Below are positions 5,122 through 42,465 of a stretch of 64,000 bases of DNA, one piece after another (positions within the stretch are counted from its first letter, which is position 1; the number at the start of each line of letters is the position of its first letter). The notes beneath the pieces are model-generated. The model did not search any database. It saw only the letters and a list, made by a program, of their open reading frames with translations, and was not told where the DNA came from. The position numbers and the translations under genes were made by a program. The DNA is from Dehalococcoidia bacterium (lineage in GTDB: Bacteria; Chloroflexota; Dehalococcoidia; Lucifugimonadales; UBA3495), in the NCBI GenBank assembly GCA_963692995.1, contig OY843611.1:2874440-2938439 (forward strand), read 5' to 3'.

Positions 5122-5137
5122 ACTCCTGGAGCCAACC

Positions 5138-15244: not shown

Positions 15245-15394
15245 AGGGCCGGTTTCCGTCGCCGGGGTCTCAGTCCCCGGCATGCGCGTTTGTCCCGGAA
15301 TATACCCTGCGCCCCCGGAACCGCGCAAGGCCGGAGCGTCATCGCCGGCGCAGTCTGTTATCTGCCGGACAGTCGTGAAAGGAGGTCCCGGTTC

Positions 15395-16033: not shown

Positions 16034-16057
16034 TGAACCAAAAGGCCGGAGGCTGCG

Positions 16058-21900: not shown

Positions 21901-22791
21901 ATCTGCCAGGACATTTTCACCGGCATTCCCGCGCACTTCACCTACGACTCCGGCGTGATCCGCCGCGGCTGGAGCGTAATGTGGATCGTCGCGCTTATCC
22001 TCATCCCCGTTATCCTTTTCTGGGAACTGCTGCGCCTTTCCGCCGGCGCCTGGTTCGGCGAAGGCGGCGTCGTCGTCCTCCGCAACCTCTTTCCCCGCAT
22101 TATCCTGGCCCTGCTGCTGGTCTGCCTCAGTTTCTACATCTGTCAGGCCCTGATCGGCTTTACTTCCGCGCTAACCTGCTACGTCAGCCAGTCCCTGGAC
22201 GTCAGCCTGGCCAGCGTGGCGACCAGCGGATTATTCGGGTTTTTCAAATCGGTTATTGCATTCGCCCAAACCGGCGGCAATCACGCGGTTCTCCTGACCA
22301 TCTTGGCCTTGCTGATGCTCGTCGCCATGCTGGCTATGTTCATCAAACTGGTCTTGCAGCTGCTGCTGCGCGTCGTCGTCATCTCGGTTTTGGTCGTCCT
22401 GGCTCCCGTCGCTATGGCCCTGTCCCTTTCCGACAGCACCCTGGGCTGGTCCCGCAAGTGGCTGGGCATCCTGCTGGCGACCCTTTTCCAGCAAGTCCTG
22501 ATTGTCGTTACCCTCTTTGTGGGCATGGGCATCATCGACCAAATGAACTGGTTCGGCGGCAACCTGGGAGTCAGGCTGGTCCCCGATTACGGCGAACTTT
22601 GGCACGTAATCACCCAGTCGGTCATGGCCTTTCTCGTCTTTTACCTGGCCGGGAAAATTCCGGCCATGGTCAATCCCACCATGGGCGCCGTCTTCGGCCA
22701 GGTCTGGGACGAAGTTCGCCGCAGCGGACAGTCCACGGCCATGATGGCCCTGGCCATGGGCCGAAGGATCGGGTCCGGCATGGTCCGCTGA
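18940..22791 (+). CDS. large envelope protein (1283 aa): ~1000-aa extracytoplasmic region plus a C-terminal polytopic VirB6/TrbL-like membrane domain
   Basis: An N-terminal TM is present (MPALLLALAAVIGATLLF). The last ~300 aa contain about 6-7 hydrophobic helices (WIVALILIPVILFW..., ILALLLVCLSFYICQALIGF..., VLLTILALLMLVAMLAMFIKLV..., VVISVLVVLAPVAMAL..., ILLATLFQQVLIVVTLFVGMG...). This is the layout of TrbL/VirB6-type channel subunits. Confidence 0.6.
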   Translation: MKRRNRQRRMPGQSAGGRITGRRITWRQRRNAGRMPALLLALAAVIGATLLFRPPPAVIEAQYDARAQGGADAQCWTSANGFAPAHASGSRVSVDRRFFSPGPESGATDYLDIRDPLTNMADYRFDAQWLRSFTTDENYDPLKLRDYQAGQAAQANDGRKELIVDPGLGLTTPALVGQLKGFPVMSGDATVDSGDGEGSTTTTLNLKTIRVDVDHELSAQYPAQSALADAGIDLDNPPANLLDWIQDTGPAPADGSPLVEKPNGLITERQLMLDSDNPLVDFASGDFDDADSRLAALGRHFWPNLADDRLAVVIKLNEAYRQDEGNGAGARKRFQGGRALRDPVDGTPRQSYLWPQPPPRSLPEAASLTGGEIRWPADFAALSWHLYAVNNLDSRTYGDYDLGPSLAGSEPADAAAMAKNIFGDAAAEWLEVMDDDDDADGRKAVRRMPDNIPAPPTDRPELRQRPLLPFQQGVNWTGGAGRLVNAGVVAPADGEPMPGTAGRNSFIQFEIRDGAGPHYPQPGVRPDQGHIPTLFDADSRFQINPNRPYLLVVAFYETEFDEAGRERFRRVLCRVAVDPAITLRGSDAHVSEGSAATPEVARTNQGEGQQGVFRRMARRLEEISQFDVSLPRMLFNYGKMKLGEEVAAVASETSAQTQQLLSQKVFQGHADNDPRWQEWEDAAQAHSSIAFGGVDGLPDSSLQLPRPELQIEQIDGEYATTLEKKRGNDWELTPKYQVWNPETQEWGLISHEDVGLSRDTWEVGCPDGICPPGYADSDKFLPKVPVTWTAPGGDHDGYRVCVVSDPRSAAVWRYQQVNGDGDPIYQPAPASAEQCFNLPRFVNNAGSYADLAASGLELGHGGNAFANVGFDPDTDADTHPHLKDFTDYAQQRLLLPVGFVHQIRVAAYFGVPEWAEAAAIRHSADGLRLGVFSPVITLSGADATCHGFVAAGSGPVHDFQRAAGCADPAALDALDPLDGFWALAGDTICQDIFTGIPAHFTYDSGVIRRGWSVMWIVALILIPVILFWELLRLSAGAWFGEGGVVVLRNLFPRIILALLLVCLSFYICQALIGFTSALTCYVSQSLDVSLASVATSGLFGFFKSVIAFAQTGGNHAVLLTILALLMLVAMLAMFIKLVLQLLLRVVVISVLVVLAPVAMALSLSDSTLGWSRKWLGILLATLFQQVLIVVTLFVGMGIIDQMNWFGGNLGVRLVPDYGELWHVITQSVMAFLVFYLAGKIPAMVNPTMGAVFGQVWDEVRRSGQSTAMMALAMGRRIGSGMVR

Positions 22792-28988: not shown

Positions 28989-29163
28989 AGGACCCGCCGG
29001 CTATCCCGAAAACCGCCCAGAGGCCCGGAGCGGCCCCGGAACCGCAGCAAAGGGGAAATCCCCAAAGAATGCCCGAAGGCCAGCGAGGGGCGTTTCCGGG
29101 CTATTCCAGGCCCGCTACGGATCAAGCCGGACGCCCAATTCGCCCCAGCGCCGCTAAAAACGC

Positions 29164-29198
29164 GAATGGGCCGGACTACGTTACTTTCCGGCCCATTC
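29164..29198. promoter_or_regulatory. perfect 12-bp-stem hairpin 38 nt upstream of the Toprim/D5-like gene
   Basis: GAATGGGCCGGA (29164-29175), 11-nt loop, TCCGGCCCATTC (29187-29198). The T-run (GCGTTTTT) is on the minus-strand side only. Confidence 0.4.
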
Positions 29199-29235
29199 CT
29201 TGCCCGCTCACCGACACCCGCGAAGGACAGAAAGC

Positions 29236-31911
29236 ATGGCAACTACATCGTATCAGAAACTCGCCCATCCCGACAATATCGCCCGCTGGCTCCGCGGCCG
29301 CAAGATCGGCGCCAACGACTGGCGCATTCCCCACCTCTGCGGCGGAGAACGCGCCCTTTCCGATAACCCCGGACTGAGCCTGTCCCTGGACAAAAATGGC
29401 CGCACGATTTTTTACTGCCACTACGGCTGCGACCCCGACGATACCAGAGCCGCCCTGGCGCCCTTCGCCGTCGGCCGAGGCAAGGTTCCTCCGCCCATCG
29501 CCCCGCGCCGCTCTTCGCGCAACAACGGCGGCAGCAGCAGCGGCAACGGCGGCAACGGCGGCAGCAGCGGCAACGGTAGCAACGGCGGCAACGGCAGCAG
29601 CAGCGGCAACGGTAGCAACGGCAGCAGCAGCAACGGCAACGGCAATGGCAGCAACGGCGGCCCCTCTTTCGCCCCCGGCAATCACCCCTGCCCCCAGTGC
29701 GGCAACCCCGCCGGGTTTCAGGCCCAGTCCGACCCCCGCTCCGGCTGGCCGATCCTTACCAGCCTCTGCTCCTGCGCCCTTTCCTACTCCCGGATGCTCG
29801 CCGCCCTGCCTCCCGCCGTCGGCGCCGCCTGGCAAGCCTGGGCCGATTACGCCACCGGCGCCGGCTCCCGCCGCATTATCCGCGCTTTTCCCGAAACCGC
29901 TAAATCCGGCAAATCCAAATCCCGCTGGTCCGGCAAAGGCCCTCTGGCCGGTCTGCAACCCCGCCGCTGGCTTCCCGATGCCCCAGCTCAGTCCATCATC
30001 CTCGCCGAAGGCGAAAAGGCCGCCGCCGCCGTCCATTCCGCCCGGCTCAACCTCCCCATCGTCGCCGCCAGCCTCCCCGGCGCCGCCGCCATGGCAACCG
30101 CCGACTACTCCCCCTTCGCCGGATGCGATATCACCGTCTGGCCCGATAACGACGCCACCGGCCAGGCCGCCGCCCAACGCGCCATCGCCGCCCTCTACCG
30201 CGCCGGCGCCGCCACCGTCCGCATGGTCTCCCCCGACGAATGCGCCCGCTTCCTGCCTGCCGACGCCGCTACCGTCGGCTGCGACGCCGCCGACCTGGAC
30301 GCCGCCCTGGTCCGCCTCCTGATCCAGCGCGCCGCTACCGCCGATCCCCCAGTGGAAAAGGACGATCCCTATATGCAGCCGCTACCCTCCGATCTCCTCA
30401 ACTCCGCCAGCCTGCAAGGCGAAAAACCCACCTGCGACGGCACCATGCTCCGCATGCTCTGCGCCGACCAGGGCAGCGGTCTCCTCTTCGCCGCCGCCGC
30501 CGCCGGCTCCCCCGACCAACTCCTGGTCAGCGACGACACCGGCGTCTGGCGGGCCGATACCGGCGAACTCCGCTACCGCGTCCGCGCCGCCGCCTACCAC
30601 TGGGCCGCCGCGGCGCAAGAAGCCGCCGACGCCGGACGAGTCAAGCCCGCCTACGCCCGACAAGTCAAAAACTGGGCGCAGTCCTGCGAAAACGCCGCCG
30701 CCCAAGACCGCGCCCTCGCCTCCGCCGGCGCCGTCTATCACAGCCTGGCCGCCGCCGGCGCCCTCCCCGCGCAACTCCTGGTCAGCTCCGGGGACGCCCT
30801 GGATCAGGACGACGCCAGCCTGGGCGCCCGCAACGGCGTGATCAATTTGCAAACCGGAGAACTCCTCACCGGCGACGCCGCCCGGGCCCGCCGCGTTACC
30901 CGCCGCATTCCCGACGATTACCACCCCGACGCCGTTCATCCCACCCTGGATCGCCTGCTGGAACTGCTGCCCGCCCAGGAAGCCGACGGCCTGTTGGATA
31001 CCTTCGCCTTCGCTCTCGGCGGACAGCCGGCCGGACAAATCGTTCTGCTGGCCGGCCCGCCTAACTCCGCCCGCAGCCTGCTGTCCGCCGCCGTAACCGC
31101 CGTCCTCGGCGACTTCCGCAGCCGCGGCTACGCCATGTCCCTGCACCCCGACGCCCTGCTCCGGCCCCGCGCCAGCGGCGGAGTCTATAGCCACAGCCAT
31201 CAAGCCTGGCTGGTCGGCGTGCAAGACGCCCGCGTCGCTACCCTGCCCAACTTCGACCCGGAGCCGGACGCCGCTCTGGACACCGGCCTGCTCAGCCGAC
31301 TGGACGGCAGCAAAGTCCTCGCCCTGCGCGACGTGGGCGACCGCGCCGGCGTCTCCCGCCCCGCCGCCGCTACTCTCTTCATCCCGGTCAGCGAGCAAAC
31401 CCTCGACGAAACTTTTCTCGATACCTACGGCCGCGAACTGGCCGGACGCCTGCGCGTCTTTCACTTCCCGCCGCAACCCCCCGGACGGGCCGAGGGCAGC
31501 GCCGCCGACTTGCTCCGGGAACCGGCCGGCCGGCAAGCCCTGCTGGCCCGGCTGGTCCGGCGGGCCGCCGCCCTGACCGACCGCCAGGACCCGCCGCAGC
31601 CGCCGACGTACCGCGAGCCGGAAGACGCCGCGCCGTCGCCGCGGGAACGCGCCGCCCGGTGGATCCGCGACTGCGTGGAAGTCACCGGCGACCCGGCCCA
31701 CCGGATCAGCGCCGCCGAACTGATGCGGGCCGCCGCCCAGGCCCTGGGCGGCGACGGACGGGAACGCGCCGGCGGGCTGACCCGCAAAGCGCTGCTGTTT
31801 CTCCTCAAAAGCCACGACCCCAACTTCCCGGAATCGGCGCCGCTGCGGATGGGATCGCAAGTGGCGCGGGGCTACGCCGGCGTGCGCCTCAAGCCGAAGG
31901 CGGGATCGTGA
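29236..31911 (+). CDS. primase-helicase-like protein (891 aa): N-terminal Zn-binding region, Gly/Ser/Asn low-complexity insert, Toprim domain, and a D5/P4-alpha-like NTPase region with a degenerate Walker A
   Basis: ATG at 29236 (MATTSYQKL). Cys/His clusters are HLCGGE...FYCHYGCD and CPQCGNP...CSC. Toprim motifs are IILAEGEKAAAAV ... ITVWPDNDATGQAAA. The P-loop position reads LLAGPPNSARSLL, where GxxxxGK[ST] is expected. Confidence 0.65.
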   Translation: MATTSYQKLAHPDNIARWLRGRKIGANDWRIPHLCGGERALSDNPGLSLSLDKNGRTIFYCHYGCDPDDTRAALAPFAVGRGKVPPPIAPRRSSRNNGGSSSGNGGNGGSSGNGSNGGNGSSSGNGSNGSSSNGNGNGSNGGPSFAPGNHPCPQCGNPAGFQAQSDPRSGWPILTSLCSCALSYSRMLAALPPAVGAAWQAWADYATGAGSRRIIRAFPETAKSGKSKSRWSGKGPLAGLQPRRWLPDAPAQSIILAEGEKAAAAVHSARLNLPIVAASLPGAAAMATADYSPFAGCDITVWPDNDATGQAAAQRAIAALYRAGAATVRMVSPDECARFLPADAATVGCDAADLDAALVRLLIQRAATADPPVEKDDPYMQPLPSDLLNSASLQGEKPTCDGTMLRMLCADQGSGLLFAAAAAGSPDQLLVSDDTGVWRADTGELRYRVRAAAYHWAAAAQEAADAGRVKPAYARQVKNWAQSCENAAAQDRALASAGAVYHSLAAAGALPAQLLVSSGDALDQDDASLGARNGVINLQTGELLTGDAARARRVTRRIPDDYHPDAVHPTLDRLLELLPAQEADGLLDTFAFALGGQPAGQIVLLAGPPNSARSLLSAAVTAVLGDFRSRGYAMSLHPDALLRPRASGGVYSHSHQAWLVGVQDARVATLPNFDPEPDAALDTGLLSRLDGSKVLALRDVGDRAGVSRPAAATLFIPVSEQTLDETFLDTYGRELAGRLRVFHFPPQPPGRAEGSAADLLREPAGRQALLARLVRRAAALTDRQDPPQPPTYREPEDAAPSPRERAARWIRDCVEVTGDPAHRISAAELMRAAAQALGGDGRERAGGLTRKALLFLLKSHDPNFPESAPLRMGSQVARGYAGVRLKPKAGS

Positions 31912-31922
31912 GGACGGGGGAC

Positions 31923-32172
31923 GCCGCAATGGGGCCAGGAAGGGCCGGAAAGGGGCCGGAGACGCCGGGAACGCCGCAAAAGGGCGCAAAGGTAGGGAAG
32001 GGCGGCAAAGGGGCCTCAGAGACGCCGGAACGCCGCAAAGCGGGGTCGCCAGACCGCAGCGGGGCCAGAAGGCCAGGGAACGCCGCAAGGGAAGGATCGC
32101 GCCGCCGCCGCAAAGGGAGGTCAGGGATGTCGCCGGAACTGCCGCCGCAAGGGGACGCTGGGGATGCCGCAA
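31923..32172 (+). repeat. left array of GCCGCAA(A/G)GG motifs (7 exact plus 2 variant copies, + strand orientation)
   Basis: GCCGCAA occurs at 31923, 31973, 32032, 32082, 32107, 32144 and 32166. Variants gcgcaaagg (31984) and gcggcaaagg (32002) are also present. Spacing is irregular. Confidence 0.85.
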
Positions 32173-32258
32173 AGGGACTTCGGGAAGGCCGCCAGGGGAA
32201 CGGATCGGGCCGGGCAAACCAGCCACGCCGCCGCCCTCAAATCGGCCTCCGCAGCGGC

Positions 32259-32304
32259 CTTCAAACCGGCCCAAAACCGGCCCTCAAACCGGCCCAAAAT
32301 CGGG
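32259..32304 (+). repeat. four tandem CAAA(A)CCGGCC-like units abutting the inverted-repeat core
   Basis: cttcaaaccggcc caaaaccggcc ctcaaaccggcc caaaatcggg. Confidence 0.75.
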
Positions 32305-32306
32305 TT

Positions 32307-32416
32307 TGTAACACTTGTAACAGGAAATCCTTAATTAACTATAGAGCTGAGAATTTAAAATCGAAAATTCAGTTTAACCTAAAGCACTATAGGGATCTCC
32401 TGTTACAAGTGTTACA
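32307..32416. other. candidate origin / DNA-unwinding core: a perfect 19-bp inverted repeat flanking a 72-bp, 29% G+C spacer
   Basis: TGTAACACTTGTAACAGGA (32307-32325) and its exact reverse complement TCCTGTTACAAGTGTTACA (32398-32416). The spacer has 21 G/C of 72 by my count. It contains GAATTT-n8-AAATTC and two ACTATAG copies. Confidence 0.6.
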
Positions 32417-32475
32417 TTTGCCAAAATATTAGAACAAATCACCCTAATTTGTTCGGGAAATTAGTACATTTGTCC

Positions 32476-32892
32476 TGTAACAAAAGTGTTCGGAACACGC
32501 CCCTCCAGCTGTTACAAAGTGTTACAAATCGGCCTCTCCTGTTACATTTTGGCCGCTTTTTTAGAATTCGTATGGGAAAACGGGCGCAAAAAACGCTTTT
32601 TTCAGCCGCAACGCCGCCTTCTCGACGAAAAAAACCGCATTTTTTGCGCCTGCGGAGCCGCTGATCCGCGTTTTTAACCCCGTCAGAGGCGCTTTTTACT
32701 GAGTTTTGCCCGTTTTTTGCGCCTTGGCCAGGCTGTTACGCGCCGTTTTTGCCGCTTTTTGCGCCCTGGACATGGCAAAATTTCGGCCCTAAACCCCCAT
32801 TTCGGCCCCTGAGGGCGGGAATTTGGCCCCAAAACCGGGATTTTGTAACACTTTGTAACAGCTGGAACCCCCCGTCCCGCCCTCCTGTTACA
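32476..32892. repeat. TGTAACA/TGTTACA heptamer (iteron-like) field, including a second perfect 19-bp inverted pair
   Basis: GCTGTTACAAAGTGTTACA (32508-32526) and its exact reverse complement TGTAACACTTTGTAACAGC (32844-32862). Single heptamers lie at 32476, 32540 and 32886, with a variant TGTTACG at 32734. TCCTGTTACA recurs at 32398, 32537 and 32883. Counting the core pair, there are at least 11 heptamers in 600 bp. Confidence 0.85.
32583..32765. repeat. TTTTTGCGCC boxes and closely spaced T-tracts (possible bent DNA)
   Basis: GGCGCAAAAAA (32583-32593) is inverted relative to TTTTTTGCGCC (32640-32650). Further copies lie at 32713-32723 and 32756-32765. T4-6 runs recur, several only ~9-10 bp apart. 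Confidence 0.7.
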
Positions 32893-33083
32893 CCCCGCAA
32901 CGGCCCGGCGCCGCCCCTTCCGGAGGGCCTGCGAAGGCCAGCCCGCAGCCGCTTTCCGGCCCGCTTTTTGCCCTCTCCTGAGGGCGCCGCTGCCCTTGAT
33001 CCGCGGTGGCCGCTGGACCGGCTGGGCGGCCCTTTGCAGCAGCATTCCGGGGGGTCTCGGCGGCGTCCCCGCCGACCTCGGCC

Positions 33084-33495
33084 TTGCGGCTACCGGCCCC
33101 GTCTGCACCGGCCTTGCGGCAGCGTCTCCGCCTACTCCGGCTTTGCGGCTATCGGCCCGGCCCACCTCGGCTTGCGGCACCAGCCTTGCTCAGCCCGGCC
33201 TGTGGCAGTGGCCTCGCCGGCATCGGCCTTGCGGCAGCGTCTCCGCCTACTCCGGCTTTGCGGCTATCGGCCCTGCCTACCTGGGCTTGCGGCTACCGGC
33301 CCCGTCTGCACCGGCCTTGCGGCTACCGGCCCCGCCGGCCTCGGCTTGCGGCTACCGGCCTCGCTTACCCCCGCTTGCGGCAGCGGCCCCGCCCACCTCG
33401 GCTTGCGGCGGCGTCTTCGCCTACCTCGGCTTGCGGCAGCGTCTCCGCCTACTCCGGCTTTGCGGCTACTGGCCTCGCTTACCCCGGCTTGCGGC
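33084..33495 (-). repeat. right array: 14 copies of TTGCGGC (the reverse complement of the left-array GCCGCAA core) at ~29-bp spacing, organised as higher-order tandem repeats
   Basis: TTGCGGC occurs at 33084, 33114, 33143, 33172, 33229, 33258, 33287, 33317, 33346, 33375, 33403, 33431, 33470 and 33489. Inter-core segments also repeat (agcgtctccgcctactccgg x3; taccggccccgtctgcaccgg x2). All three + frames are open, which fits repeats rather than coding. Confidence 0.9.
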
Positions 33496-33936
33496 AGCGG
33501 CCCCGCCGGCCTCGCCGGCCCCGGCCTCGTTCAGCCGAAATCCCGCGTCTTGCGGGATCAGTAATGACGTGTTCCGTCACAATAAAGTCAGGGAGTGCTG
33601 ACTTTCACCTCATACGAGGCGCTGTCGGAGATAAATCCGCTACAATTGCCCCTGCTTGACGATGCTCTTCGTCGCCAATAAGCCGCGGCCCAACGCCTTC
33701 CGGCTAACTATTCCCGCTCAGCCAACGCTTTCCGCCAGGAAGATGCCGGAACTCAACCCCTTCCCCAATCCGGCCCGGCCCGTCTTTCCCCTTTCACTCG
33801 GCGCCGGGCCAATGCGGTTGCGCTTTCCCGCCGTCAACCGCCCCAATTGCGACCTTTTCCGCTACTCCGGTCCGCAACCCCTAAACTATTCCCCTCATTG
33901 CCGTCCGCAATCCCTGCGCCTCAGTGCAGCCCAGCA

Positions 33937-34695
33937 TCAAATTCCAGCGCTCAACTCAGCAAACGCCGCCAAGTTCGACAATCGGACATCAGCATCCTGC
34001 GCCGTCCGCGACAGCCGGCCAGTCCACGCCGCTCCCGCCAGCCTACTAGCCCACGCCGCTTCCGTTTCCCTGAACTCGGCGCAATAAATCAGCGCCGCCC
34101 GCGACAGTTCCGCATCGGCAGCCACCGCTTCTTGCGCCGCCTCAATGAGGTCCGGCAGTCGTTGCGCCGCCGCGTCTCCCTCGGCCGCCGAAGCCGGGTC
34201 AGGGCGCAGCAAGGTCGCCAAGGCCGCCAGGGCTGCGCCGGCCGCGCCAGCCTTTTCCGACAACGCGCCGGGAACCGCCAGCTCAACGTCATAGGCGCCG
34301 GCCACTAGCGCGTAAGCGTCGCCCAGTCGAAAGCCGCCCTCCAGCGCCGTGTCCGTAGCCAGGGCGAAGTTAATTTCCTCCGTCGCCGCCGCCGCCCGCC
34401 GGTTCGCCAATGACAGCGCGTTTGCCGCGTCCGCTCCGGCGATGCCGGCAATCCCCAGGATCGCCGCGGTGTAGGCGCGCGACATGGCGACGGCGTACAA
34501 GGCGTATTGGGACAAGTTCTCTTCCCCGGCGTGGTCAAAAGCGCCATCTTGCAGCTCCGTCAGGTAATCGGCGAAAACGCACTCGCCAGCCAGGGCGCGG
34601 GCCGCGTAACCAGCCAGATAATGACCGCTTTCATCCATCGCTTCCGCCTGGGCCAGCGCCGCTTCCCAGCGGTCAGTAGGCATTGTCATAACCAT
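33937..34695 (-). CDS. Ala-rich hypothetical protein (252 aa)
   Basis: ORF with a GGGGGA-type SD and GC3 bias. No family recognised. Confidence 0.55.
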   Translation of the reverse strand: MVMTMPTDRWEAALAQAEAMDESGHYLAGYAARALAGECVFADYLTELQDGAFDHAGEENLSQYALYAVAMSRAYTAAILGIAGIAGADAANALSLANRRAAAATEEINFALATDTALEGGFRLGDAYALVAGAYDVELAVPGALSEKAGAAGAALAALATLLRPDPASAAEGDAAAQRLPDLIEAAQEAVAADAELSRAALIYCAEFRETEAAWASRLAGAAWTGRLSRTAQDADVRLSNLAAFAELSAGI

Positions 34696-35172: not shown

Positions 35173-35468
35173 TCAGCAACCCGACGTTGCCTGAGCTGCC
35201 GCTCCAATCCGCTGAACTCTCATCCCAACTAGCTGCCGGCGCTGCGTGAATGTTCCGTCAGCGTTCATCCAGTCGTACAACTCCACGTCCACGGCGGCCA
35301 GCGAGTTCACCAGGGTCCGGATGCTGTCGTAATACTGCTGCTCCCGCAATGCGGCGATGCGGTCGTTCTCGTTTATGGGGCTATTGCTGTAATGGCTGCT
35401 CGGCTAATTTTGGCGACGGCGCCACGCGGCAGTCTCAGCCGGCATTCCCTTGGGCAAAGAGCGTACAT
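35173..35468 (-). pseudogene. small ORF pair or frameshifted gene, paralogous to 39243-39458
   Basis: A 31-codon ORF (35373-35468, MYALCPRECRLRLPRGAVAKISRAAITAIAP) is followed, in another frame, by a 76-codon open frame (35173-35403, ...NENDRIAALREQQYYDSIRTLVNSLAAVDVELYDWM...). That frame has no ATG near its 5' end. The paralog at 39243-39458 carries the LCPKECRLRLPRCAVAQIS and LRERQQQ parts in one frame. Confidence 0.35.
35408..35459. repeat. 52-bp dispersed repeat, copy 1
   Basis: ttttggcgacggcgccacgcggcagtctcagccggcattcccttgggcaaag. It has 3 mismatches to copy 2 at 39359-39410 by my alignment. Confidence 0.85.
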
Positions 35469-35534
35469 CGCGTACTGGAAAAGGTCTTCCCTGCCATTAT
35501 TGTTGCCGGCCGGGTCGTTTCATGCCAGTGATCG

Positions 35535-35753
35535 TTATTCATCCGCATTCTCCGGGCTGCCGCCCGCGCAGTAGGCGTCGGCCTGCGCTTGATGGATTCG
35601 CCTGGCGTCTTGCTGACTATCGGCCGGCACTACCCCGTTGCAGCGCTGGCACCGCCATATGCCCATGTACCGCAACCGATTGCCGGATGCGTGAAACTGC
35701 CGGATTACCGGCTTGCCCAGGTCGTCAACGATTGGCGTCATGGTGAACGGCAT
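35535..35753 (-). CDS. small zinc-ribbon protein (72 aa), distant member of the PYHC family
   Basis: ATG at 35753 (MPFTMTPIVDD) follows GAGAGGA. Motif YMGIWRCQRCNGVVPADSQQDARRIHQ. Confidence 0.55.
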   Translation of the reverse strand: MPFTMTPIVDDLGKPVIRQFHASGNRLRYMGIWRCQRCNGVVPADSQQDARRIHQAQADAYCAGGSPENADE

Positions 35754-36115
35754 GCTTGGTCCTCTCTTGCGGCGAAGGTCGCATAATGCGGGGCGCGCTG
35801 CCGGATAGCAGAGACGGCGGCGCGGCAAAGTCGCTCGGGCGCGTTTCCAGCCGGCGAACGGGTCAGCCGCACGCGCGGCAGAATGCGGCGCTCTCAGCGC
35901 CCCGCCGACATTGGGGCTGTACGGGGGATAGCGACGCCGGACGGCGGCGATAGCCGGGACCCTGGAGATACGAGCCGCCGCGCCGGCGCTCAATGAAGGG
36001 GAGCCGACGCCTTTTCTTGCCGGGCGCGGTCGGCGGTCATAGCAGTACACCTTCTCCCCGTAGCGATTTGGGGTTGCTTCGCCGACGGCCCCCGGCGCCG
36101 GGGCTAGTCGGCGGG

Positions 36116-36601
36116 TTAGCCGTCGGCCAGCGCTTCGGCCTCGGCTTTGGCTTTGGCGGCCAGGACTAAATCGCGGCCGGCTTCGCCGGCTTGCCGGTTG
36201 GCCTCAATCAAGTCATCGATGGATTGGTCCGTGTCTTCGATAAGTTCGATACCCTCGTGGCGGGGAAGTCCCACGCAGACGGTCTTCTCATAGGCGTCAA
36301 GGGCGGCCCAGGCCGCCGTTGCCAGGGCGTGGGCGAAAGGGTCGTTGCCTTCACCCTTGTCGCGGACGTAAGAGCAGGCGGCGGCCGCCGTTTCTACCGA
36401 CATCACGGCCACGCTGAGGGCGGTTGCGGCATGGGCGAGGGCCGCGGAAGCGTCTTTGGCGTCACGGGCGTTCAAGGCGGCTTTGGCGGTCTCAGTCCAG
36501 GGCTTACGAACCTCCCGGAACTCCCGGAGCGCGGCTTCGCCGGTGGGCTTGTTCCAGGGCTTTGCTTCCTCCCGGACGGCGGTTTCGGTAGTTTTCTTCA
36601 T
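36116..36601 (-). CDS. hypothetical protein (161 aa)
   Basis: TAAGGAGA upstream of the ATG (MKKTTETAVREE...). Ala-rich and helical-looking. Confidence 0.65.
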   Translation of the reverse strand: MKKTTETAVREEAKPWNKPTGEAALREFREVRKPWTETAKAALNARDAKDASAALAHAATALSVAVMSVETAAAACSYVRDKGEGNDPFAHALATAAWAALDAYEKTVCVGLPRHEGIELIEDTDQSIDDLIEANRQAGEAGRDLVLAAKAKAEAEALADG

Positions 36602-36643
36602 GTTCTTTCGTCTCCTTATGCGTAGCGGCTTGATTGCGTCGCT

Positions 36644-36895
36644 TCAGTATCCGACTGCACAGTCCGGGAAGCGATCCGCCAGCGTGTCGATGGCGATGGT
36701 CGGCCCCGGTATGCTGCTGCCGTCCTGGAATACCCAGTAGAGGTCAATTCCGTAGATGACGTTTTCCAGGGCCACCATGCAAAACACCTGCCGGATGATC
36801 TCCGGCGCCTGCTCTGCGTATTCCCGTTGCAGTTCTTCGCCGTGGGCGTTGATAACCCGGTCGATGCCGTTCATCGCGGATAGGTCTCCCATCAT
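36644..36895 (-). CDS. small hypothetical protein (83 aa)
   Basis: AAAGGAGGAA lies immediately upstream of ATGATG at 36895 (MMGDLSAMNGIDRV...). The longer track ORF (to 37213) is upstream run-on. Confidence 0.6.
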   Translation of the reverse strand: MMGDLSAMNGIDRVINAHGEELQREYAEQAPEIIRQVFCMVALENVIYGIDLYWVFQDGSSIPGPTIAIDTLADRFPDCAVGY

Positions 36896-37002
36896 TTCCT
36901 CCTTTTGAGGCAGCGGCGCTCCGGCCGGCCGGCCCGGAGCGTGTTTGTTGCTGACGCCGGACGGCGATACGCCTGACCCACGTGGTTCTGACGCCAAATC
37001 CG

Positions 37003-37284
37003 CTACCGCGCCTTCCTGCTTGGCAACCCGTAGCAGATGACCTGTTTCGTCTGTTTCTCTTCTGCGCAGGCCGCGCAGGAGGCTTGGTACAGCCCGTAGT
37101 CGCTGCGTCTTCCCCGGTGGCCGGCGGCATACGTCAGTACTACGCCCTTGTGATCTGCCAGGCTGTGCCGGCAATAGCGGCAGTGGTACGGCTCGATGTA
37201 GATCGGGTGCCATTGCACCGCGGTTCCCTTGCCGCTGATAAAATTAATGTCGATGCGACTCGGTCTGGTCGTTTTGCTGCCCAT
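37003..37284 (-). CDS. PYHC zinc-ribbon family protein (93 aa)
   Basis: Motifs IYIEPYHCRYCRHS ... CAACAEE. GAGAGAAAGG upstream of the ATG. Confidence 0.55.
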   Translation of the reverse strand: MGSKTTRPSRIDINFISGKGTAVQWHPIYIEPYHCRYCRHSLADHKGVVLTYAAGHRGRRSDYGLYQASCAACAEEKQTKQVICYGLPSRKAR

Positions 37285-37446
37285 ACCTTTCTCTCGTGTC
37301 CGCCATTACTGCTCACCTGGCGCTGCGTCCGGCGCCGGACGCAGCGCCAGGCCAACCCAGCGCCGGATCCAATCCTCAGCCGCCGGCGCGAAGGCCTCAA
37401 CGCCGCTCCGGCCGCCTGGGCCGCCGTCGCTACCGCCAATTTCGTT

Positions 37447-37656
37447 TCATTGGACCTTGCTGTGCAGTTCCATCGCAATCGGGATAGCCTCCTCAAGCAT
37501 CGCCAGCGTGTCCCTGCTGACGATAGGATAGTGCATACTCGCATACTGCAACTCCTGACCGATGTGCGCCGCCGTGAGTTCGGGGGTTTCCCTGACCATC
37601 TGCTCAATGGCTGCTATGTAAGTCGCAACCCTGACGGCTGCCTCTTTTATCTCCAT
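37447..37656 (-). CDS. small hypothetical protein (69 aa)
   Basis: ATG at 37656 (MEIKEAAVRVATY...) overlaps the upstream stop (TAATG). Confidence 0.5.
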   Translation of the reverse strand: MEIKEAAVRVATYIAAIEQMVRETPELTAAHIGQELQYASMHYPIVSRDTLAMLEEAIPIAMELHSKVQ

Positions 37657-37820
37657 TACCTCACCAGCCCTCGCGCTACCACCGGCGGGAACTCCGGGTC
37701 GGTGACTGCCCGGTGGCAGAACTCCGTGGTAGATACCACGATGGTCAGCGGCATTAGCCGCCAGTCCGGTGCGGCCCCGCACTCGCCGCACGTGATAGTG
37801 AAAGCGCCAAGTGGTGTCAT
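37656..37820 (-). CDS. small zinc-ribbon-like protein (54 aa), not in the ORF track
   Basis: My translation reads MTPLGAFTITCGECGAAPDWRLMPLTIVVSTTEFCHRAVTDPEFPPVVARGLVR. GGAGG lies 7 nt upstream. Its ATG overlaps the upstream stop (ATGA) and its stop overlaps the next ATG. Confidence 0.5.
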   Translation of the reverse strand: MTPLGAFTITCGECGAAPDWRLMPLTIVVSTTEFCHRAVTDPEFPPVVARGLVR

Positions 37821-38023
37821 TCCGAGCCTCCGCAGCGGCCGCCGGCTAGGTCGTCGTGCATGGCTCTCGCCTCATCTGCCGAAGTCGCCTTGACGCCTAC
37901 CCCGCAAATGGCGCAGTGGTAGGGTTCGATTATTAGCAGCAGTCGTTGAAATAAGTCCGGGCATTTTCGTATCGCCACCAGGCGAGGTGAGCCATTTTCT
38001 CGGCGATGCGCTCGGCTCCCCAC
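37817..38023 (-). CDS. PYHC zinc-ribbon family protein (start uncertain)
   Basis: IIEPYHCAICGVGVKATSADEARAMHDDLAGG closely parallels the C-terminus of 40250-40588 at both protein and DNA level. The 5' part overlaps the preceding gene by ~90 nt, so the true start may be internal or non-canonical. Confidence 0.5.
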   Translation of the reverse strand: MGSRAHRRENGSPRLVAIRKCPDLFQRLLLIIEPYHCAICGVGVKATSADEARAMHDDLAGGRCGGSE

Positions 38024-38268
38024 AGGGCGGATAGGGTCAAGTTTTGCAGCGGGGTACGGGCCGGATGCCGCTGGCGGCGGAGCATCGGGCTGTGGCCGGG
38101 ATGCGCCTTGGCGTAGGCAATCGCCGCGGCCTTGAGATGACGGTGGAAGGCGTCAGCGGCGTCCGCCTCGCGGGACAGCATCGTCAGGTCAGCTTCTGCC
38201 ATGGGCGTGGCGAAGCCGACGCAGGTGGCGGCGGTCAGCAGCGCAGGGGGCAGTGGCTCAGGGGTCAT
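37933..38268 (-). CDS. hypothetical protein (111 aa)
   Basis: GAGGAGA upstream of the ATG (MTPEPLPPALL...). Confidence 0.55.
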   Translation of the reverse strand: MTPEPLPPALLTAATCVGFATPMAEADLTMLSREADAADAFHRHLKAAAIAYAKAHPGHSPMLRRQRHPARTPLQNLTLSALWGAERIAEKMAHLAWWRYENARTYFNDCC

Positions 38269-38460
38269 GGTCAGTCTCCTCTCGCTGCGCGCGGCGGTCT
38301 GACACCGCTAGATCAGGTCAACGGAGCCGCCGGGCAGCGCCGGTTCATCGGGTCTATCCCGGTGCGCAGGGAAACTACCGGGGGCGGCCGGCTATCGCGG
38401 CAGCGTGGCGGGGTCTATCCCGATGCGATAGGCACGTCCCTGTGCGCCTGCAAAAGCCCC

Positions 38461-38679
38461 TTATTGTGGCTTTTTACCTCCGTCATTTTCCGTGCTCCCT
38501 TCAGTAGTCAGTCGGTTCTCCAATCTCACTGTGTCCCAATCGGCCATGCTCAACTGGCAAATTTTGGTACACACCGGCCTGCGCCGGGGATGCTCGGCCA
38601 CCGGCGGTCCGATGTCATACCAGCCGTTAACCGGCCTTTCGTCGTTGCACATAAAGCAGCGTCTTTCGTCGGCAATCAT
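38461..38679 (-). CDS. small Cys-rich protein (72 aa)
   Basis: ATG at 38679 (MIADERRCFMCNDERPVNGWYD...VCTKIC) with AGGGGA 7 nt upstream. Confidence 0.5.
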   Translation of the reverse strand: MIADERRCFMCNDERPVNGWYDIGPPVAEHPRRRPVCTKICQLSMADWDTVRLENRLTTEGSTENDGGKKPQ

Positions 38680-38689
38680 GGTCATTCCC

Positions 38690-38932
38690 CTACCGTTCAC
38701 CTGTCGCCATCGTCGGATACGAAATCGGGTCGGCTACCTCGCGGCGGCAGTACTCGGCGGTATGCCACTGCGGGCCCAGCCCGAACTGGTGCCACAGGAC
38801 GTCGTGGCAATTCGCGCAGATGTCAATAACGTTGCAGTACTCGGCGTCTATCCGCTGGCTCTCGGCGTGGACGGTAATGCCGCCTTCCTCGGCCAGTAAC
38901 TCGCCGCAACTTCCGCAGTCTTGTCTTTCCAT
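38690..38932 (-). CDS. small zinc-ribbon protein (80 aa)
   Basis: AGGAGA upstream of the ATG. Motif MERQDCGSCGELL...CANCHDVLWH. Confidence 0.6.
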   Translation of the reverse strand: MERQDCGSCGELLAEEGGITVHAESQRIDAEYCNVIDICANCHDVLWHQFGLGPQWHTAEYCRREVADPISYPTMATGER

Positions 38933-38993
38933 ATCAATCTCCTATTCGGTTTTTAAGTGGTCGGATATTCCATTAGACTATTTCTCCGAGCCA

Positions 38994-39209
38994 TCATGGT
39001 CGCCGGCCGGGTCGTCCAGGGCCGCTATAGTCGGCGAAAGTCCGCTCCCCGGCCAAGGCCAGCAACGGCTGGCCCGTCCAGCAATGACCGCCGTGATACA
39101 GCAGCGGCGGGGCAAATCCTTTCACGTAACGCCGGCATTGGGCAGCCTTCTGCGGTGCAGATAACGCCGGGCCGGGACAGCTCCGTAACGACGGGAGGCA
39201 ACCTGGCAA
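38994..39209 (-). CDS. small hypothetical ORF (71 aa, TTG start), weak
   Basis: Track ORF. It contains YHGGHCW, reminiscent of CPAHCWNHG in the next ORF. There is no good SD. Confidence 0.3.
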   Translation of the reverse strand: MPGCLPSLRSCPGPALSAPQKAAQCRRYVKGFAPPLLYHGGHCWTGQPLLALAGERTFADYSGPGRPGRRP

Positions 39210-39242
39210 CGGCTCCGGCCGGGTCGCCGATGCGGGGTTTAG

Positions 39243-39698
39243 CTATTCGGGCCGGGCCGGCGTCCCTTCCAGCGCGGCCAGCAGGACCGCCTGCTCTGCT
39301 TCCGGCAGCGCTGGGGCCAGCCGGTCAAACTGCTGCTGCCGCTCCCGCAATACGCTGATTTGGGCGACGGCGCAACGCGGCAGTCTCAGCCGGCATTCCT
39401 TTGGGCAAAGGGGTACTGCCGGCGGTTCTCCGGGAAGGACGGCAATCGGCCGCCCGCTTTATTCTCCCGTAGCGCCCCGGACCATCGCCAGCTCAGCCGA
39501 AAGCCTTGCGCCAGCCGGATCGGAAATGAAGGATTGCGTCGCCGGCTGTTTGGCGGCGTGCGAATGGGGCGGCATTCCCGCGGCATTCCGGGGGGACTTA
39601 TCGGCGGACGGGCAAAGTCTGCTCGTCTGCCTTAGCCTGCCGACATTTCCGTGATTCCAGCAGTGCGCGGGACACTCGCCCTGCGTCGGAATCGTCAT
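39243..39698 (-). pseudogene. Cys/His-rich small ORF interrupted by an in-frame TAA (or two abutting ORFs); the 3' part is a paralog of 35173-35468
   Basis: The ATG at 39698 gives MTIPTQGECPAHCWNHGNVGRL... up to a TAA at 39459-39461. The same frame stays open for 71 more codons (SGRPIAVLPGEPPAVPLCPKECRLRLPRCAVAQISVLRERQQQFDRLAPALPEAEQAVLLAALEGTPARPE) to a TAG at 39243. Confidence 0.4.
39359..39410. repeat. 52-bp dispersed repeat, copy 2
   Basis: tttgggcgacggcgcaacgcggcagtctcagccggcattcctttgggcaaag. See copy 1 at 35408-35459. Confidence 0.85.
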
Positions 39699-39723
39699 AC
39701 TCGATGTCGTGTGAGCGTTTCGG

Positions 39724-40047
39724 TTAGAAGTCTCCTTCGTACCGGGCGGCGGAAGCCTCTGCCTGGTTCAGGGCGATGCCCAAAATGTCGGCTCGGCCGG
39801 CCTTTTGGGCCATGATGTTCTTGAGAGTACGCCATGCGGCTGATACCCCCAGTCCGGCGGCTTGGCCCACGTCTCCCTTGGCTTCTCGGGCGCAGGCCAC
39901 TGCCAGGGCGTCTATGTCGATGCTGGCATTAGCGCGTTCGTCTCTGTCGTATCCTGCTTCCTAGAACGTCATGCGGAGGGACCACTTGGCGGCTTCGAAG
40001 GCGCAGGTGGCGTGTTCGCTGTCTGTGAGGCTTTCATTGAGTACCAT
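39724..40047 (-). pseudogene. small ORF interrupted by an in-frame TAG (28 codons + TAG + 78 codons)
   Basis: The ATG at 40047 follows GAGGAAA. It reads MVLNESLTDSEHATCAFEAAKWSLRMTF, then TAG (39961-39963). The same frame continues EAGYDRDERANASIDIDALAVACAREAKGDVGQAAGLGVSAAWRTLKNIMAQKAGRADILGIALNQAEASAARYEGDF to a TAA at 39724. Confidence 0.4.
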
Positions 40048-40249
40048 GTGTTTTCCTCGCTGGTCGTCAGGCCCGCCGGTGGTGTGGTTCTTTTCTCTGA
40101 TGAGGTCCGTGTCGTGGGAGGGGAGTCATGTGTCGGTTTCTTGAACTGCCACCGGGGATTCGGCGGGTTGCCTGTTGTGCCGTGGCTTGGCTGGTTTCGA
40201 CGCCGGATCGCTGGCCCGGCGTGGGCTAACTGGCCGACTGCCGAGGTCG

Positions 40250-40588
40250 TTATACTGCGCCCCGGTGGCGAATGCCAGTCAGGTAGTCGTGCAGGGCATT
40301 CGCTTCTGCCGCTGAGGTCGCCTTGACCACTAACCCGCAACGGGTGCAGTGGTAGGGTATGATTCGCATCTCAATGGGCTTTCCATCGGTGGCAAATCCC
40401 GTCCGCACGTCCGTACAGCGGTGGTGAGACTCTATTGGTGTGCCGTCCGGCATCACTACTCCGAAGTCTGCACCGCAACTGCGGCAGTGGAAAAGCGTGA
40501 TTGGGGCGCCGTCTAAGCCAATGCCCCGCCAGGGGGAACCGTCGGCGGAACTGGTCAGATCGGGTTCGCCGACGGGGACAGTTGGCAA
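40250..40588 (-). CDS. double zinc-ribbon protein (112 aa), PYHC family
   Basis: TTG start with TGAGG upstream. Motifs are TLFHCRSCGADFGVV...HHRC and IIPYHCTRCGLVVKATSAAEANALHDYLTG. Confidence 0.6.
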   Translation of the reverse strand: MPTVPVGEPDLTSSADGSPWRGIGLDGAPITLFHCRSCGADFGVVMPDGTPIESHHRCTDVRTGFATDGKPIEMRIIPYHCTRCGLVVKATSAAEANALHDYLTGIRHRGAV

Positions 40589-40608
40589 CCAGTTGCCTCA
40601 ACTAGGCG

Positions 40609-41730
40609 TCATGCGTCCTCAGGGTCCTCATTAGTTATGACTGCTGCAATTTGCGGATTCAGCAAACGCCACCTTTGTCCCACTCGTTCGAGATCCCCTA
40701 TTGCAACTACTGGCTCTTTCCTCGTGTGAGCTTCAATCGCCTTGTGGTAATCAGATTGGCTCAACACCGCGACGACAGACCGAAGGTTCCCTGCGACGGA
40801 TGTTCGCAAGGTCACGGTTCCCTCAGTGTCGTCGTCATCACGTTTTAGCGTTTGTACGGAACACAGCAACTCAACATCCGGCTGCGGCTCCCGGTTGCGG
40901 AAAATCCGGGACGCCTCGCTCAGCATCGGCACGTCGTCCTGGGTAAACTGCACTGGACGTTGCGACAGTGTCACCGGCCGTGTTCTAGCCCAAGTGAACC
41001 GGATGTCGAGCGCGGAGAAGGGTTCAATCATCTGAACCAGCGCGTCACACAGGTTGGCGCTAATACCATCACTGATGGCGTTAGCGAATGCGTCTTTATC
41101 GCCGCTTACCGCCTTTTCGGACGCCTGCTTGGTCGCATGCAAAGCGTCGTACAGCCGTGTAGTTATTCGCCTTGCAACTGGGGGGTCAGCGTCGCCGGCG
41201 TCCTCAAGCAGAGGGCGTTGCAACGGCGGCACGATTACGGGAGGCAACAAAGTAACTATAAAACTGCCCGGCTCGGTTTGGCCCAGACGAACTTGCGACA
41301 GGAAATCCACGGCTTCCCGGTTGGCCCCGGCCCGGTAAAGCAGCTGGGGACTGTTCAGTGAACAGGCCGCTGCCAAAAGCATATCCCGCGCGCCGGAGAT
41401 CAAGCTGGCGCCTTCGTTTATATCAACCGTGCTATCGTCTTCAGCCACCCTCACCCGAATGACGTCCCGGTCCGTGGTCATTAAGTCTTTGCAGAGCGCA
41501 ATCTCGCTGATACCGGCAACGCGAGCCAGAATCTCGACTAACTGCGCGGTCACGCGTCCGTAGTCGCCGATGTCTCTAGTTCGGGGAACCAGTAATTCCG
41601 GCAACCCGACACCGGTGTACACATCGGAATGAGAACCAAAGATGTCAGTTTTGGTCCAGCCTTGACCACGTATGTAGGCCGCCAAGGCCGCGGGCGACAC
41701 TGCTGATCGGTCGTTTCGGTCTGGGATCAT
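40609..41730 (-). CDS. hypothetical protein (373 aa), downstream partner of the DUF4365 gene
   Basis: Its start overlaps the upstream stop (ATGA at 41727-41730). G+C is lower than the surroundings. No family recognised. Confidence 0.7.
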   Translation of the reverse strand: MIPDRNDRSAVSPAALAAYIRGQGWTKTDIFGSHSDVYTGVGLPELLVPRTRDIGDYGRVTAQLVEILARVAGISEIALCKDLMTTDRDVIRVRVAEDDSTVDINEGASLISGARDMLLAAACSLNSPQLLYRAGANREAVDFLSQVRLGQTEPGSFIVTLLPPVIVPPLQRPLLEDAGDADPPVARRITTRLYDALHATKQASEKAVSGDKDAFANAISDGISANLCDALVQMIEPFSALDIRFTWARTRPVTLSQRPVQFTQDDVPMLSEASRIFRNREPQPDVELLCSVQTLKRDDDDTEGTVTLRTSVAGNLRSVVAVLSQSDYHKAIEAHTRKEPVVAIGDLERVGQRWRLLNPQIAAVITNEDPEDA

Positions 41731-42242
41731 GGTAGTTGCGAGATCCTCCCAGTGCGGGACTGTTCCATGAGCGCCTTCAGTCCGTCAACATCAAACCGGT
41801 TTTGTTTCGGAATCCGGACGGTCACGCTAGTCTCGTTGTCGGTCTCATCCCGTCCCAACAGATTCAGCCAGTAGGCACGGCGCCTTATTATTAACTCGTC
41901 ATCGGCAATGGTCGCCCATCGTAGCGGGTCTTTTGGCAAGTCAAGCACCACCAGCAAACGCGGGGTCTGGGTTTCGATGCGCAGAAGGTCGTAGTTCCGA
42001 CGCAGTAGCGGGAAGGCTACACGGTCATCGCCGACATCGTGCAGGTTGACCGTCGCCTTCAACTGAAGTTCAAGGGCCGGCCGCATATCGCCCCCGGCCT
42101 GTATACGCAAGTCTATGCCGTCCCGGTCCCTCTCGTACACAGCGGTGACGTAACCGGCCCGCGCCGCTACCACTTGGGCATAGGCCATGGAAAGCAACTC
42201 CTCCTGGTCAGGACCAGTTAGCAGGCGGTCCTCCGACAACAT
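41727..42242 (-). CDS. DUF4365 domain protein (PD-(D/E)xK-like, 171 aa)
   Basis: EELLSMAYAQVVAARAGYVTAVYERDRDGIDLRIQAGG...ALELQLKATVN fits the DUF4365 pattern I recall (e..a.ayv.a.a...G......D.GiDl.i......l.vQlKat). GGAGAGG upstream of the ATG. Confidence 0.65.
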   Translation of the reverse strand: MLSEDRLLTGPDQEELLSMAYAQVVAARAGYVTAVYERDRDGIDLRIQAGGDMRPALELQLKATVNLHDVGDDRVAFPLLRRNYDLLRIETQTPRLLVVLDLPKDPLRWATIADDELIIRRRAYWLNLLGRDETDNETSVTVRIPKQNRFDVDGLKALMEQSRTGRISQLP

Positions 42243-42465
42243 GGCGCCTCTCCGAAGCGAGATCGTGGCATGTACTCGCCGTCCGCAACTCGTAGCCGGC
42301 GGCTATAGCGCTAGGCAGGCTCGCCACACGCCGCCGGTTAGGATCAGATTTTTGCCGACTGGTTGAGTTGCCGCGTATGACCGCCTCGCCACACCAGGCT
42401 AGGCGCGGCGATTGTAGCAAGCGATTGTGCAGGTTGATAGTACAGGGGATTCGCGTCAGCAACCC

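Follow-up and report, generated by a model that had tools for sequence, protein, structure and literature searches.

A probable replication origin with three tiers of repeats beside a primase-helicase gene in a putative conjugative element of a Dehalococcoidia bacterium

What function can be assigned to the longest non-coding stretch of a conjugative element that is otherwise poorly annotated? The question is raised by positions 31912–33610 of a 64,000-nucleotide stretch of contig OY843611.1 (assembly GCA_963692995.1, Dehalococcoidia bacterium), here called the window, whose numbering is used throughout. The region follows the stop codon of a gene for an 891-residue primase-helicase (29236–31911, + strand), and a first-pass annotation, made from the letters alone, had proposed it as an origin, a partition site or a translocase-loading site. 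The analysis described here favours the first of these: the region probably serves an integrated conjugative element as its cis-acting replication origin (oriV), bound by the primase-helicase as its initiator and at least ancestrally able to fire, a reading to which we would assign a probability of about 0.62. Its centre most likely belongs to the class of origins known from the Staphylococcus aureus pathogenicity islands (SaPIs), and the locus as a whole is oversized, being ~1.7 kb long, arranged in three tiers and provided with an apparently ATPase-dead initiator.

A central module of heptamers around an AT-rich core

The absence of coding sequence, claimed from the start, is borne out by base composition. 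GC content by codon position is flat over 31860–33570 (maximum minus minimum 0.02–0.13, against 0.25–0.38 in the flanking genes), and 31912–33610 is the largest gap in the window between open reading frames (ORFs) with coding signal. A repetitive protein-coding gene was rejected because of this flat profile and because the 29-bp repeat period is not a multiple of three. The repeats and boxes listed earlier were all recovered in their places, and their motifs are enriched: the region holds 11 exact copies of TGTAACA/TGTTACA against one in the remaining 62.3 kb of the window, four copies of TTTTTGCGCC against none, and 22 of GCCGCAA against 37. Comparison of the region with plasmids and phages by blastn gave no match, and neither did Rfam and tRNA scans of the window.

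The module on which the origin reading is founded lies at 32.30–32.90 kb. Its first heptamer stands 396 bp past the stop codon of the primase-helicase gene, with no coding signal in between, and is led into by short tandem CAAA(A)CCGGCC units on the + strand (32215–32303; Tandem Repeats Finder (TRF) delimits 32233–32303, with a period of 11–12). There follow heptamer pair A (TGTAACAcTTGTAACAgga, 32307–32325, + strand), a 72-bp AT core of 29.2% GC with nested palindromes (32326–32397), which is a candidate unwinding element, and the opposed pair A′ (32398–32416, − strand). Two copies of TGTAACA and two of TGTTACA, paired at a 9–10 bp pitch, therefore flank 72 bp at 29% GC, with more convergent sets beyond them. 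Pairs A and A′ form the left and right arms of an inverted repeat of 27 nt at 93% identity, 19 nt of which are perfect, and the core as single-stranded DNA folds into a hairpin (z = −7.3). Farther to the right, 32476–32546 contains a single heptamer (+, 32476), pair B (−, in the arm 32504–32528) and another single heptamer (−, 32540); a T-tract zone (32547–32770) comes next, in which four TTTTTGCGCC/GGCGCAAAAA boxes accompany a 20-nt inverted repeat (32583–32602 / 32631–32650); and 32842–32892 is made up of pair B′ (+, arm 32842–32866) and a single heptamer (−, 32886). A lead-in resembling the CAAA(A)CCGGCC units also precedes pair B′. The arms of B and B′ make up the second perfect inverted pair noticed in the first-pass annotation, which is real and proved to be 25 nt long (32504–32528 / 32842–32866), not 19 bp.

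Two other identities for this module can be set aside. A protelomerase target or telomere was considered for the 110-bp palindrome and excluded, its centre being an imperfect palindrome and no such enzyme having been detected. Nor does the module resemble a classical iteron origin of the Rep_3 type: no TTATCCACA (DnaA box) occurs in the window, the repeat units are 7-mers or 28–30-mers and not iterons of 17–22 bp, and the candidate initiator is a superfamily 3 (SF3) primase-helicase, not a Rep_3-type protein.

Modules of the same kind recur in other lineages. An exact 20-mer scan of public collections for TTTGTAACACTT(N0-1)GTAACAG yielded 16 genome and 45 metagenome loci. Chance does not account for many of these, more than 20 of the scanned loci holding 5–11 heptamers within 500 bp. 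In ten loci from seven lineages, 6–11 copies of TGTAACA/TGTTACA form a cluster that coincides with the 3′ end of an SF3 primase-helicase-type gene or lies just past it. The gene is VapE-like plus DUF5906 in L007, DUF5906 in L025, DnaG-like in L066 and L048 and DUF3631 in L012 and L053; in L058, L059 and L031 it combines Zn_ribbon_DnaG, D5_N and DUF5906, and the cluster lies within its last ~380 nt. L032, a contig of 61% GC, carries an ORF that aligns end to end with residues 711–886 of the window primase family (hhalign, E = 2e-5); the ORF is followed by TGTAACAcTTGTAACAgaTGTAACG, ~75 bp and an inverted triplet. The usual layout is three heptamers at a pitch of 9–10 bp, 40–75 bp of intervening DNA and three inverted heptamers. 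Among viral contigs, the triplet falls between −375 and +414 nt from the gene 3′ end in 16 of the 23 TGTAACA loci with a helicase-like ORF (binomial p ~4e-12, against uniform placement). The comparison suggests that TGTAACA recurs beside very different SF3 primase-helicase genes, in hosts ranging from 25% to 65% GC, and metagenomes could be searched with the heptamer, as a simple sequence handle, for origins belonging to satellites, phages and integrative elements. A literature search found no paper connecting TGTAACA with iterons.

It is the position of the heptamers, and not their number, that is used as evidence here. TGTAACA triplets were found in at least 120 viral contigs, and two shuffled-heptamer controls gave 114 and 65 loci; with shuffled words far from rare, enrichment by raw counts was dropped in favour of position near helicase genes. 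The control heptamers, too, stand on the 3′ side of helicase genes (3 and 10 loci). Because they occupy the same position, short tandem heptamers just 3′ of SF3 primase-helicase genes would seem, on this comparison, to be a general architecture whose word is lineage-specific, and the arrays of control words are probably real iterons of other lineages.

Some individual loci deserve mention. For the controls TATGACA and TGATACA (viral contigs L305–L369 and L191–L304), several contigs have triplets that follow a helicase-like gene at a distance of 64–173 nt, and in two others the triplet falls just within the 3′ end of such a gene. In a Bacteroidaceae metagenome-assembled genome and the matching metagenome contigs (L013/L034, L014/L039), eight TGTAACA/TGTTACA heptamers within 85 bp adjoin MlaE and radical-SAM genes, not a helicase gene.

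The primase-helicase and the copies that have lost its C-terminus

The product of the gene at 29236–31911 consists of an N-terminal Cys-rich domain (Zn-ribbon), Toprim, D5_N, an SF3 helicase and, at the C-terminus, a winged helix; it matches D5_N and Toprim_3 in Pfam and DNA primase families in PHROGs. Its AlphaFold2 model (predicted local distance difference test, pLDDT, 83) is closest in the PDB to the African swine fever virus (ASFV) PrimPol and the poxvirus D5/E5 hexameric helicase-primases. A model of the last 121 residues (pLDDT 89) places an RFX-like winged-helix domain at residues ~800–886 (31633–31893, + strand), with the DNA-binding domains of RFX5 and RFX1 as the top Foldseek matches (E 7e-4, TM score 0.75); the origin-binding domain of phage P4 (1ka8) is a weak structural match, at rank 23 with E 1.4. 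The RFX half-site is RGYAAC (PMC2375033). Its resemblance to the GTAAC of the heptamer is a lead only.

The catalytic motifs of Toprim are intact. Those of the ATPase are degenerate: Walker A (31054–31077, residues 607–614) reads GPPNSARS, with lysine replaced by arginine (K→R), and Walker B (near residues 670–675) reads ATLPN, with glutamate replaced by asparagine (E→N). An exhaustive HMMER search returned 2133 homologues, and those that do not belong to the protein's own cluster are at most 37% identical to it. Many of the alignments reach residue 885–888. The tblastn search of plasmids gave no match and that of phages a single weak one, and scans of genome, viral and metagenome contigs with back-translated primase patterns also gave no match. 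A Gly/Asn/Ser low-complexity linker (residues ~90–145, 29500–29670; pLDDT <40) follows the Cys-rich domain and carries an indel between the full-length copies P0001 and P0005, the second of which is identical to the window protein.

A natural comparison is provided by three metagenomic loci, L002, L003 (in a contig of 3.15 Mb) and L004, which are 95–97% identical to the window at the primase gene and its upstream flank and 88–93% identical downstream. By their blastn breakpoints, all three are without 31773–34241 and without 29048–29280. The first of these is a segment of 2.47 kb, defined by the breakpoints and the junction alignment; the encoded proteins finish in an out-of-frame tail, and the same tail is found in P0004, a protein from the window's own 3.29-Mb contig. 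The cut falls after residue 846, and the recognition helix (850–860) and wing (868–885) are lost together with every repeat tier. The siblings carry a deletion, since the C-terminus of the window protein beyond the breakpoint is the one conserved in distant homologues; judging from the alignments, the window has the ancestral state. Insertion of a non-autonomous mobile element with ~40-bp flanking repeats was ruled out, as the junction has GC-rich microhomology only and the window C-terminus is conserved. The second deletion (29048–29280, 232 bp) removes the primase start codon and DNA upstream of it. The ratio of nonsynonymous to synonymous substitution rates (dN/dS) in the helicase core is 0.22–0.24 between the window and its siblings and 0.12–0.22 among the deleted copies, where counts are small, and it is ~1 in the N-terminal coding part of the primase that the siblings have kept. 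By this measure the helicase core appears to evolve under purifying selection despite its degenerate Walker motifs.

Taken together, the comparative loci, the winged-helix C-terminus and the joint deletion uphold the earlier proposal of an origin as far as the central heptamer/AT-rich module is concerned.

The 3.29-Mb contig holds further related genes. At least two full-length and one truncated primase gene copies are present, the full-length homologue P0001 lying elsewhere in the contig. Convergent with the primase gene is a 252-residue ORF (33937–34695, − strand), the 3′ third of which falls inside the segment deleted in the siblings; P0160 (250 residues, 93% identical to it) is encoded on the same contig, and P0161 is a truncated form of 157 residues. 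Inside the deleted segment there is also a 143-residue ORF (33656–34087, +) with some GC bias at third codon positions over 33660–33840, which makes it a candidate gene. Beyond the segment, the siblings have ~1.9 kb of mostly different sequence in place of 35432–42333 (6.9 kb), apparently variable cargo that includes a DUF4365 gene.

Likeness to known origins

A close parallel in overall architecture is offered by the SaPIs. In these islands rep is immediately followed by the origin, an AT-rich centre with 6–12 penta- or hexanucleotide iterons of both orientations about it; the iterons are read by a C-terminal winged helix of Rep, the active helicase Rep binds and melts the origin without ATP, and SaPI5 has primase and helicase fused (PMC9371898). 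The window locus shares the position 3′ of the primase-helicase gene, the opposed iterons, the AT-rich centre and, by prediction, the C-terminal winged helix. Judged by the features of origins of SaPIs and other phage-inducible chromosomal islands (PICIs), it lies downstream of the initiator ORF, it has at least two opposed iterons both left and right of the AT-rich stretch and its initiator ends, by model only, in a winged helix. The features of an active self-loading helicase, on the other hand, are missing from the Walker motifs. The window also differs in its heptamers, of which there are at least 11 within 0.6 kb, and in having outer arrays of 0.28 and 0.45 kb, and its helicase carries K→R and E→N in the ATPase motifs, while the SaPI Rep is active; the likeness of the two is one of architecture. 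The first-pass remark that no mirrored origin of this kind was known does not hold for the inner tiers, since SaPI iterons are themselves mirrored around an AT-rich centre (PMC9371898), and it stands for the third tier, as the outer GC-rich arrays were found in no other locus.

Similar arrangements are present in phages of the genus Efquatrovirus. For phage Abitsa, a site with seven 10-bp iterons on the sides of an AT-rich region has been put forward as the origin used by a SaPI5-like self-loading helicase (PMC13517437). The Enterococcus phage LY0322, of the same genus, has mirrored sets of TGTAAC(A/G) at a pitch of ~10 bp around an AT-rich centre of ~75 bp, as in the window. Its site differs from that of the window: it occupies a divergent intergenic region that precedes the annotated primase gene by ~3 kb and is thus not on the 3′ side of the gene, it has no outer arrays, and the host is low-GC.

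A likeness of another sort is seen in the Sulfolobus plasmid pRN1, the origin of which is a stem-loop of ~100 nt (21-nt stem, 58-nt loop), placed 54 bp beyond the 3′ end of a gene for a protein with primase, SF3 helicase and winged-helix domains (PMC4234260, PMC2777425). The winged helix of that protein, ORF904, has been likened to RFX (1dp7) and to P4 (1ka8) (PMC2777425), the same two relatives that are found for the winged helix in the window, and the 27-nt arms and 56-nt loop of the window repeat match the dimensions of the pRN1 stem-loop. However, pRN1 is archaeal, has a prim-pol in place of the Toprim primase and an active helicase, and iterons have not been recognised in it.

Phage P4 had been named as a parallel in the first-pass annotation. 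It has multiple short iterons, octamers, at two loci, ori and crr, that are several kilobases apart. The parallel is sound in kind, as P4 alpha has the same order of domains, from a DnaG-type primase through an SF3 helicase to a winged-helix origin binder at the C-terminus (PMC2777425); in structure it is loose, 1ka8 being only a weak match to the winged helix of the window protein.

On these grounds, a working model of the origin can be put forward. The initiator would be the element's own protein, in which a DnaG-type primase is joined to a D5-type SF3 helicase and, at the C-terminus, to an RFX-like winged helix; the winged helix would read the heptamers. Oligomers might assemble face to face on the two inverted heptamer sets, whereupon the AT core would open, possibly also by extrusion of the hairpin, and the Toprim primase could lay the primer. 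The substitutions in both Walker motifs make a self-loading, ATP-driven mechanism doubtful for the window protein. Given K→R and E→N, unwinding in the window lineage probably needs a host helicase, or else the origin is now a binding site that does not fire. How an origin works when its initiator is missing the Walker A lysine and the Walker B acid is a question that this locus raises.

Several observations weigh against an origin. The K and the E/D are retained in all 71 of 71 aligned homologues where the window protein has R and N, which makes the ATP-driven, self-loading mechanism of the SaPI type unlikely here by sequence. Copies with the deletion have survived in three other assemblies, with dN/dS of the helicase core at 0.12–0.24 (on small counts), and the region is therefore dispensable for the persistence of the integrated element. 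No second complete three-tier copy was found among the retrieved loci, a set that leaves out those of P0001 and P0160, and the loci of the distant homologues L001, L005 and L006 have no comparable region. The outer arrays were present in none of the comparative loci inspected in detail and have no assigned binder. Finally, a GC-skew signal sought around 32.3 kb did not appear there: the minimum for the window fell near 37–40 kb, a result that is uninformative for an integrated element.

In L001, only a 54-bp near-perfect palindrome of different sequence is found (7480–7533, with GTAGGGAnAATCCCTAC twice), starting 21 nt past the stop codon of the homologue's gene. The sequence of this contig (ERZ25069191 ctg549360) recurs every ~8.4 kb, a pattern suggestive of a small circular replicon in concatenated form, and its single recognisable replication gene encodes the 982-residue homologue, 33% identical to the window protein.

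The outer arrays, competing explanations and the surrounding element

The third tier flanks the central module on both sides. On the left, eight GC(C/G)GCAA(A/G)GG units, with irregular spacing of 22–59 bp, occupy 31923–32199 on the + strand, and seven exact GCCGCAA and one variant lie between 31923 and 32172. On the right, 33058–33507 contains 15 units of 28–30 bp whose core is TTGCGGC (GCCGCAA when read from the − strand), 14 of them exact and one a TGTGGC variant; TRF counts 15.6 copies and finds higher-order periods of 115 and 174 bp. The + strand is purine-rich on the left side of the region and pyrimidine-rich on the right. This composition bears out the description of the two arrays as facing each other. 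Motifs of the GC(C/G)GCAA type, the TTTTTGCGCC boxes included, change strand near 32.62 kb, inside the 20-nt inverted repeat, and not at the AT core. We take the outer arrays as a lineage-specific third tier, consisting either of accessory binding arrays or of expanded minisatellites, and what reads them, if anything does, is the second question posed by the locus.

The possibility that they are functionless GC-rich minisatellites, expanded by slippage or unequal exchange beside a compact origin, is unlikely but has to be taken seriously. The higher-order periods of 115 and 174 bp suggest, from the pattern of the repeats, recent expansion; unit subfamilies and the irregular spacing of the left array point the same way, and the arrays are missing from every other heptamer locus inspected in detail. 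Against such an expansion, the core of the right array (CTTGCGGC) stands well above its flanks in conservation, reaching 1.6–2.0 bits per position where the flanks are lower. Moreover, the same 7-mer faces the centre from both sides, inverted, and recurs in the central zone as the TTTTTGCGCC boxes.

The degenerate helicase opens the way to an improbable but coherent explanation, namely that the region is a locus for initiator titration, incompatibility or autoregulation, at which an ATPase-dead protein acts as a DNA binder without firing replication. The sites would then sequester the initiator, repress transcription or handcuff siblings in a genome with at least three related copies. Degenerate Walker motifs combined with purifying selection on the helicase core speak for such a protein, and the occurrence of two or more full-length and one truncated primase genes on one 3.29-Mb contig and the unusually large number of sites are in line with it. 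Yet the heptamers and AT core are laid out as in the origins of other lineages, and the Toprim catalytic motifs have been kept intact. A more elaborate version, quite doubtful in our view, would make the locus a decoy or control device and not a firing origin: here the ATPase-dead primase-helicase, under purifying selection, would coat giant mirrored arrays around a canonical heptamer origin and titrate the initiator, block forks or impose incompatibility among siblings, the outer arrays then forming a novel type of binding array that has a separate reader.

It is very unlikely that the outer arrays serve as a partition centromere, either flanking the origin or combined with it. Centromeres such as sopC and parC are formed of repeat arrays, which the outer arrays, of 8 and 15 direct repeats built on a conserved core, resemble in form. 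However, among ~50 window ORFs there was no Pfam match of the ParA/ParB/ParM/ParR type, which leaves the earlier suggestion of a partition site without support; the pitch of 28–30 bp is off helical phase; the arrays are deleted in copies that persist; and an integrated element has no need of partition. The suggestion of a translocase-loading site is likewise without support. In actinomycetes, TraB is an FtsK-like translocase that recognises 8-bp repeats at clt, while the transfer genes of the window are of the type IV secretion system (T4SS) kind (VirB4-like, VirB6/TrbL-like and a TrwB-type coupling protein). An origin of transfer (oriT) or a loading site for the coupling protein is scarcely credible, even with genes for a coupling protein and VirB4-like and VirB6-like proteins in the element and inverted repeats and a hairpin cluster in the region, since the single relaxase-like match is weak (Replic_Relax, E 0.006) and ~25 kb off and the heptamer module accompanies primase-helicase genes in phages and small contigs without conjugation genes.

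With a replication origin retained as the favoured reading, the surroundings of the region can be described briefly. The window encodes a TrwB-type coupling protein (1984–5121) and a VirB4/TraG-like ATPase (54670–56994), and it has weak matches to TrbL/VirB6 (18940–22791) and to a T4SS pilin; the relaxase-like match is at 5048–6682. Because these conjugation genes are present and the primase protein is encoded on a 3.29-Mb contig, the window is read, from its gene content, as an integrated conjugative element. Few of the ~50 ORFs match Pfam. The ~50 that were scanned include no ParA/ParB, no integrase and no clear relaxase family, and the element may extend past the window.

At the right edge of the region, just beyond the right array, there is a cluster of three or four consecutive short hairpins (33540–33620; DNA fold z = −4.2), which could be a terminator, a single-strand initiation site or a product of chance. 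Elsewhere in the window, a 1734-residue ORF (49428–54632, 72–76% GC) contains internal repeats, seen as offset blastn matches at ~50354–50900, and has a weak alanine-zipper match only. In a 917-residue protein (14135–16888, −), matches to sigma-70 region 2 and region 4 are confined to the last 200 residues.

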